Shown here one piece after another: positions 509 to 45,145 of a stretch of DNA of 45,145 nucleotides; positions within the stretch are counted from its first letter, which is position 1; each line of letters opens with the position of its first letter. The notes beneath the pieces are model-generated. The model saw only the letters and a list, made by a program, of their open reading frames with translations. It did no database searches and was not told where the DNA came from. This stretch comes from a virus, in IMG/VR virus record IMGVR_UViG_3300045988_035404. One strand, 5' to 3'. Both the position numbers and the translations under genes were made by a program.

Positions 509-538
509 AAAAAGGCTAGGGTTGTCCTAGCCTTTTTT
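509..538. terminator. Bidirectional intrinsic terminator
   Basis: A5-GGCTAGG-gttgt-CCTAGCC-T6. It is a perfect 7-bp stem with U-runs available on both strands, sitting directly 3' of the 183-aa gene. Confidence 0.7.
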
Positions 539-1088
539 ATCGGATATTTTCTAAATTATTTTCAATCCATTTGAGACGGTTTTGGCGACCAGACGGAATA
601 GGTTCTTGACCTCTTGAATAATCTTTAAACCGCATTTGAAGCATGTAAGAGCCCCCACCTAGCGAGCTAGATTCTAATGCAATTTCTAAATAAGCACTAG
701 AAATCCAGTTCCCGCTTGCCGTATACATTCTACCGGCACCGCCAATGATGTCTTCATGGCTAGTCTCAAGCCATTTAAGGAGTTGTTGTTTCTTAAATTG
801 GTCATAATAAGTATAGAATGCCATATTCATTTTCAAGGAATTATCCAAATAGTATTTATGCTGAGCCTTGCCAATCATAGCAAGCTCAAAATCGTCAAAT
901 AGGCAATCGAGCATGGCGTTCACTCGTGCCGCCCCCATCTTCTCTATAGAGGTGCCCCCGTTTTTGAATTTTTGCCAGTTTGCATCAGTGAATTTGATGC
1001 CTGGCAATTTGTAGAAGTCGTTTTCAAATTTGAAATAGCGTCCTACGTACTCTAAAATCAATTCTTTGATATCGTTGTTGATTTCCAT
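537..1088 (-). CDS. Hypothetical soluble protein, 183 aa; candidate anti-CRISPR (AcrIIA6-like by size and position, unverified recollection)
   Basis: ATG with an AAGGAG SD, 12 nt after the upstream ORF. No TM segment, HTH or catalytic motif recognised. It is the second gene of the insulated moron operon. Confidence 0.85.
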   Translation of the reverse strand: MEINNDIKELILEYVGRYFKFENDFYKLPGIKFTDANWQKFKNGGTSIEKMGAARVNAMLDCLFDDFELAMIGKAQHKYYLDNSLKMNMAFYTYYDQFKKQQLLKWLETSHEDIIGGAGRMYTASGNWISSAYLEIALESSSLGGGSYMLQMRFKDYSRGQEPIPSGRQNRLKWIENNLENIR

Positions 1089-1100
1089 TTTTATTTCTCC

Positions 1101-1436
1101 TTATGCTACTTCCCAGACTTTTTCAGAAATGTAGTAAGTACCGATGTTGGAACCGTCAGCTACCACTTCGATGCCGTAGTAAGCACCTACTTTGTGCATT
1201 ACTTCGTTGAATTTAACCACTTTAGCAGCGTCTAGCACTTCAACCATTGACCATTTGCCAGATTTACGCATTTTAGCTTCAACTGCTTGGAATTTAGCAA
1301 GGCTAGTGTCACTATCTTTGATAGCAGCCCACGCCATTTTCATAGCTCCAGCGATGTATTCAACAGCTTTACCACCGAATTTTTTAGCAGCTTCTTTTGC
1401 GATTCCCCAAGCGTTTTTCATAAGTTCTTTTTTCAT
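1101..1436 (-). CDS. Hypothetical protein, 111 aa (Ala/Lys-rich helical N-terminus, beta-rich C-terminus); first gene of the moron operon
   Basis: ATG with a GGGAG SD, 34 nt downstream of a consensus promoter. No family recognised. Confidence 0.85.
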   Translation of the reverse strand: MKKELMKNAWGIAKEAAKKFGGKAVEYIAGAMKMAWAAIKDSDTSLAKFQAVEAKMRKSGKWSMVEVLDAAKVVKFNEVMHKVGAYYGIEVVADGSNIGTYYISEKVWEVA

Positions 1437-1469
1437 GGTTCTTACTCCCTTTCTTTATCTTGCATGTAT

Positions 1470-1498
1470 AGTATATATCATACATGATAGTTTGTCAA
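1470..1498 (-). promoter_or_regulatory. SigmaA-type promoter TTGACA-17-TATACT of the moron operon, with an overlapping inverted repeat
   Basis: -35 at 1498..1493 and -10 at 1475..1470. The 7-bp inverted repeat CATGTAT/ATACATG (1463-1469 and 1480-1486) straddles the -10. Confidence 0.65.
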
Positions 1499-1534
1499 CG
1501 CTTTTGATAAAGAAATTTAGTTTTTTTGCAAAAT

Positions 1535-1614
1535 AAAAAACCCCGACTAAAAGCCGGGGGCAGTTCGAGAATTTTCATCGAAAGACGCCAAGTATTCCAA
1601 TGACTATAGTATCA
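1535..1614 (-). ncRNA. Candidate mini transcription unit 3 (TGATACTAT -10, ~65 nt, terminator)
   Basis: -10-like element at 1614..1606. Terminator is CCCCG/CGGGG stem (1541-1559) plus a U6 run (1540..1535). No ORF with an SD. Confidence 0.3.
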
Positions 1615-2639: not shown

Positions 2640-4031
2640 TTAAATTAGTTTCGTCCAACCGCTAGGCACGGCTGGGTTAGTAGTTAAATAGTTGGCATGC
2701 CCGAAACATGCCCCGTTGGTATCCATGCCAGAACCTCTAAACGTGAGCTTACCACTGGCGTTAGCGACCAGAAATGGCGCATACCCTTGCTTAGAACTGT
2801 ACTTAGTGAATGGAATGGTTAGGTTTCCAGCGTAGTCTAGCAAGCTTTCTGGCCATGTTTCTGTCGCTTCATCCTTATCAGTCTCGGTTGAGCTACTGAT
2901 ATATTCATTGACCTTGATTGAGATATCAATAGCATTGCCATAGACGGCCATTTTAGCCGTTACCTTGCCTTTAAATAAGGCTGGCAAGTATTCGTCTGGA
3001 ATCTTATAGACAGCCATTTCTGGGGCTGATACGGTGCTTGTGGGCACGCCCGTAGTCTCTAGTTTAGAAACTCGGTCAGCAATTGCTTGACGCTTAAACA
3101 CCCAGTCACGCATGGCTTCTTGCAACCAAGGCGCTGCTGGATTGCCATAGCTCGGATTGTCAACCAGATAGAGATGCCCAACGTGTTCCTTGTCAGCTTT
3201 AGCCAATACTTGCTTGTAATTGTCTTTGGTGACATTGTAAATGCAATGCCAGAATTTAGTCGAATTCTCACGCTTGCAATAATCGGGCGTAATCTCACGC
3301 TCAAGGTACTTATCCGCTGAGCTTTCAAAATTCATGAAGACGTCAGCACTGTCAAGCAATTCCTCGACCACGTTAGAGCCTGGATTGGCCACGATAGTAG
3401 TATCAACGCCCTCGAATTTCTTGAAATACTGATTTAATTCCTTGTATTTCGGAATTAAGCTAGCTTGCTCAGAGTAGCCGTTGATAGTTTCATCGAAAAA
3501 TATACCGTCAATCAGGTTTGGCATGTCCTGCTTGTATTTGCGGTAACGACCTAGCAAATCGTCCTTATCAAAATTCCCATAGCCCGTTGGGAGATAGATT
3601 AGGACACTAGCCCCAACCGCTTTAGCACGTTTGGCTTGCTCGATATGCTCTGGTTGGACTGCACCCCTACCGCTATCAACATTGATGATAACGAAACCGA
3701 TATTATCCTTGATAGTCACTGCTTGATTCCATTTAGAATCGGCTTTGTGATAATCCGGATACCAGTAAGAGATGGGACTGATTCGACGTTCACCAGCGTT
3801 TGGATTGTCGATTTTATTTTTTAACTCTTCAATTTCCTTTGTAGGTAATTGAGATTTTAACACAAATGGGTCTGGCATCCATGCACGTGCTTCTACAACA
3901 TGAGTCACAAAGTTATCGTATGTTGGAAATAACGAATACGCGGTTTGTGTAGTCAACGATGAAGATTGTTTATCTTTAATTTCTTTAATATCAGCCCCAA
4001 CCGCTTGAGCAAATTCTGTGAACTTACTCAT
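2640..4031 (-). CDS. Fibre-like protein with a spherulin-4/GH135-like (beta/alpha)8 glycoside hydrolase domain; putative polysaccharide depolymerase
   Basis: The track start at 4040 is GTG, and the ATG at 4031 gives MSKFTEFAQAVGADIKEIK. The motif string VIINVDSGRGA..GASVLIYLPTGYG..IDGIFFDE matches the Spherulin4 (PF12138) pattern as I recall it. Confidence 0.6.
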   Translation of the reverse strand: MSKFTEFAQAVGADIKEIKDKQSSSLTTQTAYSLFPTYDNFVTHVVEARAWMPDPFVLKSQLPTKEIEELKNKIDNPNAGERRISPISYWYPDYHKADSKWNQAVTIKDNIGFVIINVDSGRGAVQPEHIEQAKRAKAVGASVLIYLPTGYGNFDKDDLLGRYRKYKQDMPNLIDGIFFDETINGYSEQASLIPKYKELNQYFKKFEGVDTTIVANPGSNVVEELLDSADVFMNFESSADKYLEREITPDYCKRENSTKFWHCIYNVTKDNYKQVLAKADKEHVGHLYLVDNPSYGNPAAPWLQEAMRDWVFKRQAIADRVSKLETTGVPTSTVSAPEMAVYKIPDEYLPALFKGKVTAKMAVYGNAIDISIKVNEYISSSTETDKDEATETWPESLLDYAGNLTIPFTKYSSKQGYAPFLVANASGKLTFRGSGMDTNGACFGHANYLTTNPAVPSGWTKLI

Positions 4032-4036
4032 AGCGC

Positions 4037-4345
4037 TCACGCTTTCGCAGAATTATATACACTTACAAGGTCTTCTTGCTCGATGGTATCGATACGAGTA
4101 CCCATCTCAATCATTTTAGTAATGATACCGCTCTCTGTATTGCCACCCGCTGCGGTGATTTTATCAGCGATTTCCTTGAGTGTATCAAGTTCTTCTGGTG
4201 CATTACCGATGATGTCAGCTTTCGCTTGCGTGATAGCTTGCGTCAAGCGTTCCTCGCTGACACCAGCCGGCTTGCTGGCAATAGATGCCTTAATCTCCTT
4301 GATGTCAGCACCGACTGCCTGGGCGAAATCACGTAATTTACTCAT
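4037..4345 (-). CDS. Small tail-fibre shaft/adaptor-like protein, 102 aa
   Basis: Contains GNAPEELDTLKEIA, a motif common in phage tail fibres. It shares its N-terminus with the 463-aa protein and its C-terminus with the 149-aa protein. Confidence 0.6.
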   Translation of the reverse strand: MSKLRDFAQAVGADIKEIKASIASKPAGVSEERLTQAITQAKADIIGNAPEELDTLKEIADKITAAGGNTESGIITKMIEMGTRIDTIEQEDLVSVYNSAKA

Positions 4346-42070: not shown

Positions 42071-42099
42071 AGTATACCTAACGCGTTCCCATTTGTCAA
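42071..42099 (-). promoter_or_regulatory. Early lytic promoter TTGACA-17-TATACT
   Basis: -35 at 42099..42094 and -10 at 42076..42071. A GGGAAC operator half-site (42085-42090) lies in the spacer. Confidence 0.65.
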
Positions 42100-42145: not shown

Positions 42146-42174
42146 TTGTTTATTTTCGGGAACTGTTGTATAAT
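42146..42174 (+). promoter_or_regulatory. Repressor promoter TTGTTT-17-TATAAT
   Basis: -35 at 42146-42151 and -10 at 42169-42174. GGGAAC sites lie at 42137-42142 and 42158-42163. Confidence 0.6.
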
Positions 42175-42205
42175 GTTCTTACTATTAAGTAAAAGGAAAA
42201 AGCGC

Positions 42206-42556
42206 ATGAGAAACAACGAGGAAATTATTTTACTAATAAAAAGCTATTTAGATAATAGTTCTATGTCGATGTCTGAATTAGCTGCAAAAGCGGGGGTTTC
42301 AAAATCGACTTTATCAAGATATCTTTCTGGCAGTCGGGTGTTCCCGCTGAATAAAGCGGATGATTTCGCTAGTGCTCTAGGTTTGACAACGGAACAATTT
42401 TTGAATGTAACACCTAGCCCGACAGATACTGCTTCAACCGACATCGATAACATTATAGAAAACGCTATGATGTTCGATGGTAAACCACTGACTAGTGATG
42501 ATAAACGTGCCATTCGTGGCATAATCGCCGGTTACATGAATAGCAAGGAGAATTGA
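42206..42556 (+). CDS. Phage repressor, XRE HTH (ImmR-like, no S24 peptidase domain)
   Basis: The ATG at 42206 has an AAGGAAA SD; the track TTG extension is rejected. HTH segment MSELAAKAGVSKSTLSRYLSG. Confidence 0.85.
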   Translation: MRNNEEIILLIKSYLDNSSMSMSELAAKAGVSKSTLSRYLSGSRVFPLNKADDFASALGLTTEQFLNVTPSPTDTASTDIDNIIENAMMFDGKPLTSDDKRAIRGIIAGYMNSKEN

Positions 42557-42561
42557 TACTT

Positions 42562-42936
42562 ATGGAGAAAGAATTGCTTGAGCAGTTCAACGTGTCTCTT
42601 TGTGAGTTTAGTTCTAACGAGTGGCCCAGAAACGGCTTTATCGACCCAATAAATAGGGTCGTTTACATCAACGGGGATTTAGCCCCAGAAATACGTTTAA
42701 AGGTCATTTTACATGAATTGGGACACCTAGAGCACAACTCTAAAGACTATGAGCGATTGCATGAGAAATACGAAGCTCAAGCTAATAAAAAAATGATCCA
42801 TGAGTTGTTGAAAAATGAAAATCTTGATGATTTTAATTACTTACACTTTATGGAAAAATATAATCTCACCACAATTTGTGATGAGACGTTTGTAAAAGAC
42901 GAATATCTAAAACTAAAGGAGATTGAAAAATGTTGA
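42562..42936 (+). CDS. immA: ImmA/IrrE-family zinc metalloprotease (anti-repressor protease)
   Basis: HELGH motif (ILHELGHLEH). The ATG at 42562 lies 11 nt after AGGAG. Directly follows the repressor gene. Confidence 0.8.
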   Translation: MEKELLEQFNVSLCEFSSNEWPRNGFIDPINRVVYINGDLAPEIRLKVILHELGHLEHNSKDYERLHEKYEAQANKKMIHELLKNENLDDFNYLHFMEKYNLTTICDETFVKDEYLKLKEIEKC

Positions 42937-43674: not shown

Positions 43675-45117
43675 ATGACAATGCATAAAGTTGCTATCTA
43701 TGTCCGAGTGTCGACCACATCGCAAGCTGATGAGGGCTACTCTATCGACGAGCAAAAAGCAAAGCTGACAAGCTACTGCGACATTAAGGACTGGAATATT
43801 TACGAGATATACACAGACGGCGGTTTCTCTGGATCTAACACGGAACGCCCAGCACTAGAGCAGTTGATAAGAGATGCAAAGAGAAAACTGTTTGATACTG
43901 TCCTAGTGTATAAACTAGACCGTTTGAGCCGCAGTCAGAAAGATACACTCTATCTGATTGAAGATGTATTTCTGGAGAATGATATAGAATTTGTCAGCTT
44001 ACTCGAAAACTTCGACACCTCAACGCCGTTTGGTAAGGCAATGATTGGGCTCCTCAGCGTGTTTGCCCAGCTTGAAAGAGAACAAATCAAGGAACGCATG
44101 CAGTTAGGCAAGCTGGGGCGGGCAAAGTCCGGTAAGTCGATGATGTGGTCAAAGACATCTTACGGCTACGATTATGTCAAAGAGACCGGCACGCTCTCAA
44201 TCAACCCATATCAAGCTCTAATCGTCCGAAAGATGTTTGAATGGTATTTATCGGGTATGTCGATAACCAAGCTCAGAGATACCCTCAATGAGCAATATGG
44301 GCAAGATAAAGAGTGGAGCTATAGAACAGTGCGGGCTATCCTGTCGAACCCGGTATATTGTGGATATAACCAATTTAAAGGACAGATATTCCCTGGTACT
44401 CATGAGCCTATCATATCCGAGGAAGATTTTAACAAGACGCAAGAGGAAATCAAAATAAGGCAAAGGACAGCCGCCCAGCGATTCAACCCTCGGCCATTTC
44501 AAGCTAAATACATGCTTTCTGGTATAGCTCAATGCGGCTATTGTTCCGCCCCTCTTGCTATCAAGTTAGGCATGAAACGGAAAGACGGCACTCGCTTAGT
44601 CAAATATGAGTGTAAGCAGCGACATCCACGAAAAACCAAGGGCGTCACTGTTTATAATAACAATGAAAAATGCGACTCTGGATTTTACTTCAAAGACGAT
44701 ATAGAGCACTTCGTCCTAACTGAAATCAGCAAGCTGCAAACTGATTCAGACTATATCGACAAGCTATTTTCAAACACTGACAAAGAGACTATAGACCGTG
44801 ATAGTTACCAGAAACAGATTGATAATCTGACCGCTAAAATTAGCAGGCTTAATGATCTATACATCGACGATAGGATTTCACTAGAGGAATTACAAAAACG
44901 GTCAAGCGACTTTATGGCAGAAAGAACAGCTCTTGAAAAAGAACTAGACGCTGACAGCTCTATCAAAACCGTAGAACGAAAAAAAGACATTAGACGGGTA
45001 CTTGATACCAAGGATATATTTAGCCTTGACTACGAGCACCAAAAAGCCATAGCACGCGCCTTGATAAGCAAGGTTCGAGTGACTAGTGAAACTATCGTTA
45101 TTTTATGGAAATTATAG
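43675..45117 (+). CDS. int: Large serine recombinase (integrase)
   Basis: N-terminal resolvase catalytic motif VAIYVRVSTTSQ..GYSIDEQ, a recombinase domain, a Cys-rich zinc ribbon (CGYCSAPL...YECK) and a C-terminal coiled coil. 480 aa. Confidence 0.92.
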   Translation: MTMHKVAIYVRVSTTSQADEGYSIDEQKAKLTSYCDIKDWNIYEIYTDGGFSGSNTERPALEQLIRDAKRKLFDTVLVYKLDRLSRSQKDTLYLIEDVFLENDIEFVSLLENFDTSTPFGKAMIGLLSVFAQLEREQIKERMQLGKLGRAKSGKSMMWSKTSYGYDYVKETGTLSINPYQALIVRKMFEWYLSGMSITKLRDTLNEQYGQDKEWSYRTVRAILSNPVYCGYNQFKGQIFPGTHEPIISEEDFNKTQEEIKIRQRTAAQRFNPRPFQAKYMLSGIAQCGYCSAPLAIKLGMKRKDGTRLVKYECKQRHPRKTKGVTVYNNNEKCDSGFYFKDDIEHFVLTEISKLQTDSDYIDKLFSNTDKETIDRDSYQKQIDNLTAKISRLNDLYIDDRISLEELQKRSSDFMAERTALEKELDADSSIKTVERKKDIRRVLDTKDIFSLDYEHQKAIARALISKVRVTSETIVILWKL

Positions 45118-45145
45118 AGCGTTTTAGTTACATTCATTTCAATCA
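45091..45145. repeat. Terminal direct repeat copy 2, identical to 1-55
   Basis: Exact identity read directly. Confidence 0.95.

Follow-up and report, generated by a model that had tools for sequence, protein, structure and literature searches.

The last element of the 45,145-nt viral sequence analysed here (IMG/VR record IMGVR_UViG_3300045988_035404; this whole stretch is called the window below) is a small cassette on the minus strand, at 509–1560, in which two open reading frames (ORFs) follow a promoter of their own: one codes for the 111-aa protein Gp111 and the other for a 183-aa protein that is almost certainly the anti-CRISPR (Acr) protein AcrIIA6. A previous interpretation made from the letters of the DNA (the sequence-only reading) had described an insulated promoter-gene-terminator cassette in the slot between the lysin gene and the attachment site. 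This description was borne out, and the promoter TTGACA-17-TATACT, the flanking terminators, the close ORF pair and an inverted repeat were all present when the coordinates were checked (Table 1). As in a typical moron, the genes have their own promoter and terminator and are insulated from the late operon.

The -35 (1498–1493) and -10 (1475–1470) hexamers are separated by a 17-nt spacer and constitute the best promoter match within positions 1–2700. The terminator at 1541–1559, which adjoins the A/T-rich region located 5' of the -35 hexamer, shields the cassette from read-through out of the lysin gene, and the arrangement terminator-TTTTGCAAAAAAA-promoter is conserved across the S. thermophilus/salivarius loci. 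At the other end, the hairpin begins directly at the stop codon of AcrIIA6 and a T-run follows it on either strand. The gap between the two ORFs measures 12 nt (TAA-GGAGAAATAAAA-ATG) and includes a Shine-Dalgarno sequence, GGAG; the two genes very probably form one operon. A 1.6-kb transcript of the genes between lysin and attR has reportedly been seen in the Sfi21 lysogen. The 320-bp non-coding gap between the endolysin gene and the acr promoter (1560–1880) contains two minus-strand terminators and a promoter-like TG-extended site (1634–1606). This gap held no credible ORF, and Rfam gave no match there or anywhere else in the window.

Table 1. Features of the acr cassette and of the phage genome that carries it (window coordinates).
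Feature	Position	Strand	Remarks
Bidirectional intrinsic terminator, end of operon	509–537	both	stem GGCTAGG-N5-CCTAGCC, A5 and T6 flanks
AcrIIA6 ORF (almost certain assignment), 183 aa, second operon gene	537–1088	-	PDB 6EYX/6EYY match
Gp111 ORF, 111 aa, first operon gene	1101–1436	-	Pfam PF07410
CAAGATAAAG, copy of the (T/C)AAGATAA(A/G) motif	1453–1462	-	initial transcribed region/5' untranslated region, ~8 nt past -10
Inverted repeat CATGTAT/ATACATG	1463–1486		arms 1463–1469 and 1480–1486; straddles -10
sigma-A promoter TTGACA-17-TATACT of acr operon	1470–1498	-	11/12 match; scaffold kept in relatives
Spacer dyad TATCAT-AC-ATGATA, proposed AcrIIA6 operator	1476–1489		arms TATCAT 1476–1481, ATGATA 1484–1489
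Intrinsic terminator upstream of promoter	1541–1559	-	8-pair stem, 6 GC, T6 tail
Second upstream terminator	1796–1770	-	in the gap after the endolysin
CHAP/SH3_5 endolysin	1880–2626
cro-like gene		-	transcribed from promoter 42099–42071
ImmA-like protease and repressor	42146–42936
Serine integrase	43675–45117

The identification of the 183-aa protein, which the sequence-only reading had suggested, is supported by a full-length match in the PDB (phmmer, 6eyy_A and 6eyx_A, E 2e-108, residues 1–183 on 1–183). Compared with the D1811 protein, 159 of the 183 residues are identical (87%), and PF28149 AcrIIA6 is on record for an identical protein in a precomputed table. In D1811, this gene (D1811_026) alone abolishes CRISPR1 (CR1) immunity (Hynes et al., 2018; PMC6060171). 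The helix-turn-helix (HTH)/dimerisation domain, residues 1–59, which is required for inhibition of interference (PMC9120153, PMC13131331), is intact and untruncated in the window, with only 5 substitutions in residues 1–76 relative to D1811. It had been noted earlier that neither protein of the cassette contains a recognisable HTH. This is correct at the sequence level, but the crystal structure of AcrIIA6 does contain an HTH dimer, formed by helices 1–5, which superimposes on the C.Esp1396I–DNA complex and binds double-stranded DNA (PMC6060171). Moreover, a review counts AcrIIA6 among the bifunctional HTH proteins that combine Acr and anti-CRISPR-associated (Aca) functions (PMC10901769). A patch at residues 77–82 is hypervariable (HKYYLD in the window, TNYYND in D1811; residues 77–81 are encoded at 846–860) and, to judge from the alleles, looks like an arms-race surface.

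Spacer dyads and the regulator of the operon

We have compared the promoter of the window with those of 59 IMG/VR loci containing Gp111 and 75 containing AcrIIA6, about 135 in total, some contigs being in both sets. The scaffold TTGAC(A)-17-TATAAT is kept in all of them. The (T/C)AAGATAA(A/G) motif accompanies all operator classes and all leader genes, and it is therefore part of the promoter/5' untranslated region scaffold and not tied to one regulator. In the 59 Gp111 loci Gp111 is always the first gene behind the promoter, while the downstream cargo varies: AcrIIA6; AcrIIA25 plus AcrIIA6; a 74-aa ORF plus AcrIIA5 and Aca12 (Sfi21, O1205); AcrIIA30 plus Aca12; AcrIIA31 plus Aca12; Aca13, either free or fused to AcrIIA31.1; or an AcrIIA6-like protein of 54% identity. 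Each of these promoters has a dyad within its 17-nt spacer, with a sequence that tracks the downstream DNA-binding protein. Of 89 promoters with the dyad TATCwT-N2-AwGATA, 83 are linked to AcrIIA6, and the remainder belong to truncated contigs or are second copies immediately 3' of acrIIA6. The dyad ACTTAGTTATAACTAAGT goes with the 54%-identical AcrIIA6-like protein, TTGACG-N2-4-CGTCAA with Aca12, CGTATATTTAAATATACG with a 45%-identical Aca12-like protein, and TAGTAyATrTACTA with Aca13 or its fusions.

The 75 AcrIIA6 loci give the complementary view. They retain the AcrIIA6-type dyad with Gp111 as the leader and equally with the 114-aa orf10/e27-type gene, an acidic 60-aa gene or an orf14/orf13-type gene, and even when there is no leader and the promoter lies 62 nt from acrIIA6. 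The variation within the dyad is also matched by variation within the protein. A left arm with AT pairs with K40/N43 of AcrIIA6 in 37 of 38 cases, and one with TT or TC pairs with R40/S43 in 18 of 21; on the right arm, AT accompanies F-T-D-A at residues 33–36 in 52 of 52 and AA accompanies F-M-V-A in 6 of 7. All of these residues are within the HTH domain, and both arms shift together, TATCAT..ATGATA becoming TATCTT..AAGATA.

In the window promoter there are two overlapping palindromes. The sequence-only reading had anticipated an operator-like palindrome, and one is indeed there, the spacer dyad TATCAT-N2-ATGATA, a single copy in the 45-kb window (chance expectation 0.24 at up to one mismatch). 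The repeat that had been singled out as the operator was CATGTAT/ATACATG. This repeat is real, and extends to 12-nt arms with 83% complementarity, but it is not the conserved one: at least 6 of its 7 pairs are kept in only 11 of the 53 unique AcrIIA6-type promoters, whereas at least 5 of the 6 complementary positions of the spacer dyad are kept in 49 of the 53. It is probably a lineage-specific feature of the AT-rich region, or at most the outer part of a composite operator.

The dyad follows AcrIIA6 under any leader and covaries with residues of its HTH, so that AcrIIA6 is the most likely regulator. A palindrome inside its own promoter that tracks the protein is also what is expected of an Acr-Aca fusion. 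On this comparative evidence AcrIIA6 probably autoregulates through the spacer dyad at 1476–1489, although we hold this with less assurance than the identity of the protein. The sequence-only reading had instead contemplated a regulator without HTH, and Gp111 acting on the palindrome as an unconventional Aca would fit some of the data: it is the most conserved gene of these loci, always promoter-proximal, it is basic (isoelectric point 9.35), and the genes flanking acrIIA6 have been published as lacking an HTH (PMC6060171). However, the operator type tracks the downstream HTH protein and not Gp111. Gp111s of 50–97% identity occur with five dyad classes, and those of L004–L006, 97% identical to that of the window, stand behind an Aca13-type dyad. 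Conversely, the AcrIIA6-type dyad persists where Gp111 has been swapped for other genes or is missing. Gp111 has no HTH family in Pfam or NCBIfam and its structural model has no match to a DNA-binding fold. Since Gp111 stands behind five operator types, each matched to the regulator downstream, we regard its being the autoregulator as very improbable.

We consider it likely that a temperate phage of the S. salivarius/thermophilus group carries here an anti-CRISPR operon complete in itself, working in four steps. The consensus sigma-A promoter would be active upon DNA entry, and at a low level in the lysogen, giving a single mRNA for Gp111 and AcrIIA6. AcrIIA6 dimers would then bind the host Cas9 of the CRISPR1 type loaded with CRISPR RNA and block DNA targeting, as expected from the 87% identity to the D1811 orthologue, for which this has been shown. 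As AcrIIA6 accumulates, its N-terminal HTH dimer would sit on TATCAT-N2-ATGATA, between the -35 and -10 hexamers, and occlude RNA polymerase, the operon thereby repressing itself. Gp111 would be co-transcribed cargo and not the regulator, built of a shared N-terminal helical hairpin and a family-specific C-terminal helix/beta domain with the motif HKxGAYYG.

Several observations weigh against this mechanism or its details. No experiment on binding or repression by AcrIIA6 at the spacer dyad is known to us from the literature, and we found no paper that defines an AcrIIA6 operator (Fuchsbauer 2019 was outside the reach of the search). The DNA binding published for AcrIIA6, by bio-layer interferometry, is non-specific and includes double-stranded DNA, single-stranded DNA and DNA-RNA duplex (PMC6060171). 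From one half-site centre of the dyad to the other there are only about 8 bp, little for a classical HTH dimer if it is not the outer bases ACTATC...GATAT that are contacted. The loci compared share ancestry and in part repeat one another, some IMG/VR contigs having been included twice, so that the counts overstate independence. About 10 loci hold both AcrIIA6 and Aca12, i.e., a second regulator can coexist. Finally, position 81, a reported Cas9–RNA contact, is N in D1811 and L in the window; this position is hypervariable over 70 unique alleles (L 32, I 15, F 14, M 5, S 3, N 1), and N81 is therefore not family-defining.

The non-specific binding and the presence of Aca12 beside AcrIIA6 in some loci would also suit a different explanation, in which the dyad is bound by a host factor, by the phage CI or Cro or by an Aca supplied in trans, or has no function and comes simply from the AT-richness of a consensus promoter. 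Such spacers do yield short palindromes easily, 13% of shuffled ones reaching arms of at least 5 nt, but in the real set arms of this length are found in 32 of 58 unique promoters. A by-product would not be expected to covary on both arms, nor to differ in class according to the HTH protein linked to it and to residues in that protein's HTH. Within the window, neither Aca11, Aca12 nor Aca13 was found. The early promoter at 42099–42071 had been described as being of the same type as that of the cassette, and it does share the hexamers TTGACA and TATACT and the 17-nt spacing, but its spacer is unrelated and without such a dyad. We therefore give these explanations together only a minor share of the probability, and autorepression by AcrIIA6 remains the preferred reading.

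Some loci carry more than one copy of the promoter. In four of the AcrIIA6 loci a second promoter and operator copy was found about 30–80 nt after acrIIA6 (L069, L081, L102 and L136), driving Aca12 in L081, and in L042–L046 there are two Aca13-type promoters within one locus. With such duplicates one regulator probably governs two transcription units.

Gp111 and its family

The 111-aa protein had been left without a family by the sequence-only reading. It can in fact be placed: it matches Pfam PF07410 (Phage_Gp111) with E 4.9e-25 and 88.8 bits, against a gathering threshold of 27.1, residues 4–110 aligning on profile positions 1–116 of 117, and it corresponds to phrog_8487 (E 1.4e-59). The homologue in D1811, D1811_025, is 77% identical. 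Gp111 is moreover a published marker of acr loci. It was by its position downstream of the conserved Gp111 gene, which precedes acrIIA5 in D4276, that acrIIA6 was found (Hynes et al., 2018; PMC6060171).

PF07410 is annotated without a function, and most of its members are united by the N-terminal hairpin of about 45 residues, the window protein being a full-length member. An exhaustive search with a hidden Markov model retrieved 807 clusters, nearly all matching residues 1–47 only. This shared part is a two-helix hairpin, 'AW..FGG..ALKxAW', and the C-termini are highly varied across clusters. The 48-residue N-terminus alone gave two matches in a word-indexed protein database. The window protein belongs to a small streptococcal subgroup with an HKxGAYYG C-terminal domain. 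Homologues 62–95% identical to it share 45 invariant positions, and in a broader set of full-length members H81, K82, G84-A85-Y86-Y87-G88, E105 and W108 are invariant. An AlphaFold2 (AF2) model made from a 31-sequence alignment (pLDDT, the predicted local distance difference test, 76) has four helices, a three-stranded meander and a short helix; an earlier one from 21 sequences was discarded (pLDDT 55). Foldseek with this model gave no relative in the PDB (best E 0.5), and what it retrieved from BFVD either belonged to the family or was alike in the hairpin alone. Nothing was matched in the PDB by sequence or by profile, nor in NCBIfam or PADLOC.

The commonest alternative leader of acrIIA6 operons is the 114-aa orf10/e27-type protein (L003, L066–L137). 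It shares the hairpin of Gp111 (hhalign probability 94.7%, E 6e-8) and differs in its C-terminal domain, which is basic. The 'orf10' of CHPC663 in Song 2022 was annotated from a later start and is devoid of the first helix. The opposite truncation is found in a group of prophages (L054–L061) including S. uberis Javan633/628, where only the C-terminal 65–80 residues of Gp111 are present, as the first gene ahead of an AcrIIA31-like protein and Aca12, suggesting that the C-terminal domain may function independently.

A likeness of the N-terminus of Gp111 to that of AcrIIA3 ('IMKxAW...LKxAW') raised the possibility that it was AcrIIA3. This was rejected, with an hhalign probability of 4.8%; the AcrIIA3 sequence used, 91–93% identical to Listeria A118 gp30, does not match PF07410. 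In CHPC873, CHPC640 and phage 115, the true AcrIIA3 homologue is encoded by a gene of its own, about 1 kb further downstream than Gp111.

What Gp111 does can be approached from its distribution. It occurs in virulent phages (D1811, D4276, Sfi19) as well as in temperate ones, and its presence in strictly virulent phages makes a host-protective or superinfection role unlikely. Going by its position, the best guess is that it may be an early anti-defence or host-takeover effector, which we put forward only tentatively. The published test of a homologue, the 111-aa 'orf1' of P7602, was uninformative because the protein was toxic in E. coli (Song et al., 2022; PMC8934645). In our searches Gp111 showed no likeness to any Acr, anti-defence or defence protein. 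It would be still bolder, and we think it rather unlikely, to see Gp111 and the orf10/e27-type leader as a new class of early effectors acting on a conserved target other than Cas9, with the hairpin of about 45 residues as a common adaptor that hundreds of phage families combine with interchangeable effector domains. If there is such a conserved target, it could account for the toxicity in E. coli.

That Gp111 is itself an anti-CRISPR, directed for example against type III-A, I-E or CRISPR3 (CR3) systems, and perhaps already named in literature beyond the reach of our search (two papers by Johnson et al., 2025), appears improbable as well. It would agree with its constant place as the first gene of acr operons beside AcrIIA5, 6, 25, 30 and 31 and with its spread over virulent and temperate phages. 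On the other hand, Gp111 is unlike AcrIIA3 or any PDB chain, AcrIIIA2 has been described with its own internal promoter and hence not as a first gene (PMC13575424), and a 2026 survey gives only AcrIIA3, AcrIIA5 and AcrIIA6 for S. thermophilus phages. The toxicity that stopped the test of the homologue might suggest instead an addiction pair of the toxin-antitoxin kind, with a toxic first gene and a second gene whose HTH protein probably autoregulates. The gene-neighbourhood data lead us to reject this reading, which we consider the least probable of all: the HTH proteins that accompany Gp111 are of at least three unrelated kinds and are often separated from it by other genes, AcrIIA6 is very often found without Gp111, and strictly virulent phages carry Gp111.

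The phage genome and the movement of the cassette

The window contains a whole temperate phage, with the replication, packaging, tail and lysis genes on the minus strand and the acr cassette as the last element. Positions 1–55 are identical to 45091–45145, and across this junction the window agrees to 100% with a circular assembly (L139), indicating a circularly closed genome with an assembler overlap and no host flanks of a prophage. The closest relative in the GenBank phage set searched is the S. salivarius phage SA-TP2 (88.5% nucleotide identity), and this nearest phage alone suggests the host species. Scanning GTDB genomes with Gp111 patterns gave no match.

Three related assemblies (L138–L140) carry an identical AcrIIA6 and a Gp111 gene of the same length in the same position. 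Among these and the window, the cassette is found behind three different lysis cassettes, i.e., Amidase_5 with ZoocinA_TRD, Spherulin4 with CHAP/SH3_5, and CHAP with GH25, and the repressor modules differ too. An identical AcrIIA6 behind three lysis modules indicates that the cassette travels between phages as a unit and points to recent horizontal exchange.

An integrated copy of the phage (L141) shows where it enters the chromosome. Identity to the phage stops at ...CCTTGATTGAAATG (window ~45–56, L141 7000–7060) and is followed by the host genes comGC/comGE/comGF. The phage side of this junction provides an ATG and about 13 codons (MLKSRILVTLIEM...), rebuilding the 5' end of a competence pseudopilin gene. 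The serine-integrase phage would thus split the comG operon, a situation reminiscent, by analogy, of the 'active lysogeny' at comK in Listeria.

Two other genes of the neighbourhood deserve mention. A 66-aa Cys-rich ORF (C4...C33...C47xxC50) lies on the plus strand at 150–350, in the stretch from acrIIA6 to the integrase, and runs towards the acr operon, with its own TG-extended -10 (~115–126) and its own terminator (349–376). It is present in L139–L141 and not in L138, and neither the family searches nor an exact-pattern scan gave a match. Between the holin genes and the endolysin, a 466-aa ORF (2640–4040, minus strand) is without a match in PHROG; PF12138 (Spherulin4), a glycosyl-hydrolase-like family, is assigned to the identical gene of L139/L141, and the protein may accordingly be a second lysis or depolymerase enzyme.

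Relation to known systems

From its sequence, the region is the already described AcrIIA6/Gp111 cassette of dairy and oral streptococcal phages, in a new allele. The same gene pair is found in D1811 (D1811_025/026) and in the annotations of SA-TP2, and by tblastn in Sfi19, Sfi11, TP-J34, 5093 and others. The locus has the two genes, the order and the position after the lysis module of the D1811 acrIIA6 locus (PDB 6EYX/6EYY/6RJ9/6RJA), and the same promoter with a TATCATATATGATA dyad. It differs in that the phage of the window is temperate and has a serine integrase, and in that acrIIA6 adjoins the terminator with nothing in between. Being a textbook acrIIA6 locus, it should not be chased as a novel anti-defence operon. 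Its position agrees with the 'variable region' described after the lysin of S. thermophilus phages, where early genes are preceded by a consensus sigma-A promoter that has an UP element, sometimes with internal promoters of the same type (PMC13575424, 2026).

With regard to regulation, the closest parallels are the bifunctional Acrs AcrIIA1, AcrIIA13–15 and AcrIF24, which have HTH and Cas inhibitor in one protein and a palindrome in their own promoter (PMC10901769; PMC9001735). Unlike in these, the HTH of AcrIIA6 doubles as the dimerisation interface needed for Cas9 inhibition, and its operator binding is inferred. The acr-aca operons with Aca12 or Aca13 (Song et al., 2022) share with the window the promoter scaffold, the 5' untranslated region motif, often the Gp111 leader and a dyad site in the spacer; the dyad sequence is different, however, and they use a separate regulator gene. 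Like C.Esp1396I, AcrIIA6 would act on its own operon as a small HTH dimer, at a short dyad that overlaps the core promoter, but no sequence relationship was detected, and C-proteins activate and then repress through two adjacent sites, in contrast to the one conserved dyad here.

The new point is the comparative evidence that AcrIIA6 probably shuts off its own promoter through a small palindrome. It provides a testable candidate operator for AcrIIA6, TATCAT-N2-ATGATA, together with matched operators for Aca12, Aca13 and the divergent AcrIIA6-like protein. Such matched sets may be taken as orthogonal small repressor/operator pairs, and they would explain how an acr operon lacking an Aca is restrained. 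As for Gp111, no other gene is as constant in streptococcal acr operons; the homologue tested is toxic in E. coli, and the N-terminal module recurs in more than 800 protein clusters. A 2025 survey listed no known anti-restriction-modification protein in 191 streptococcal phages and expected anti-defence proteins that are not yet identified (PMC12322248). Gp111 is a reasonable target in the search for such proteins in the dairy phages.

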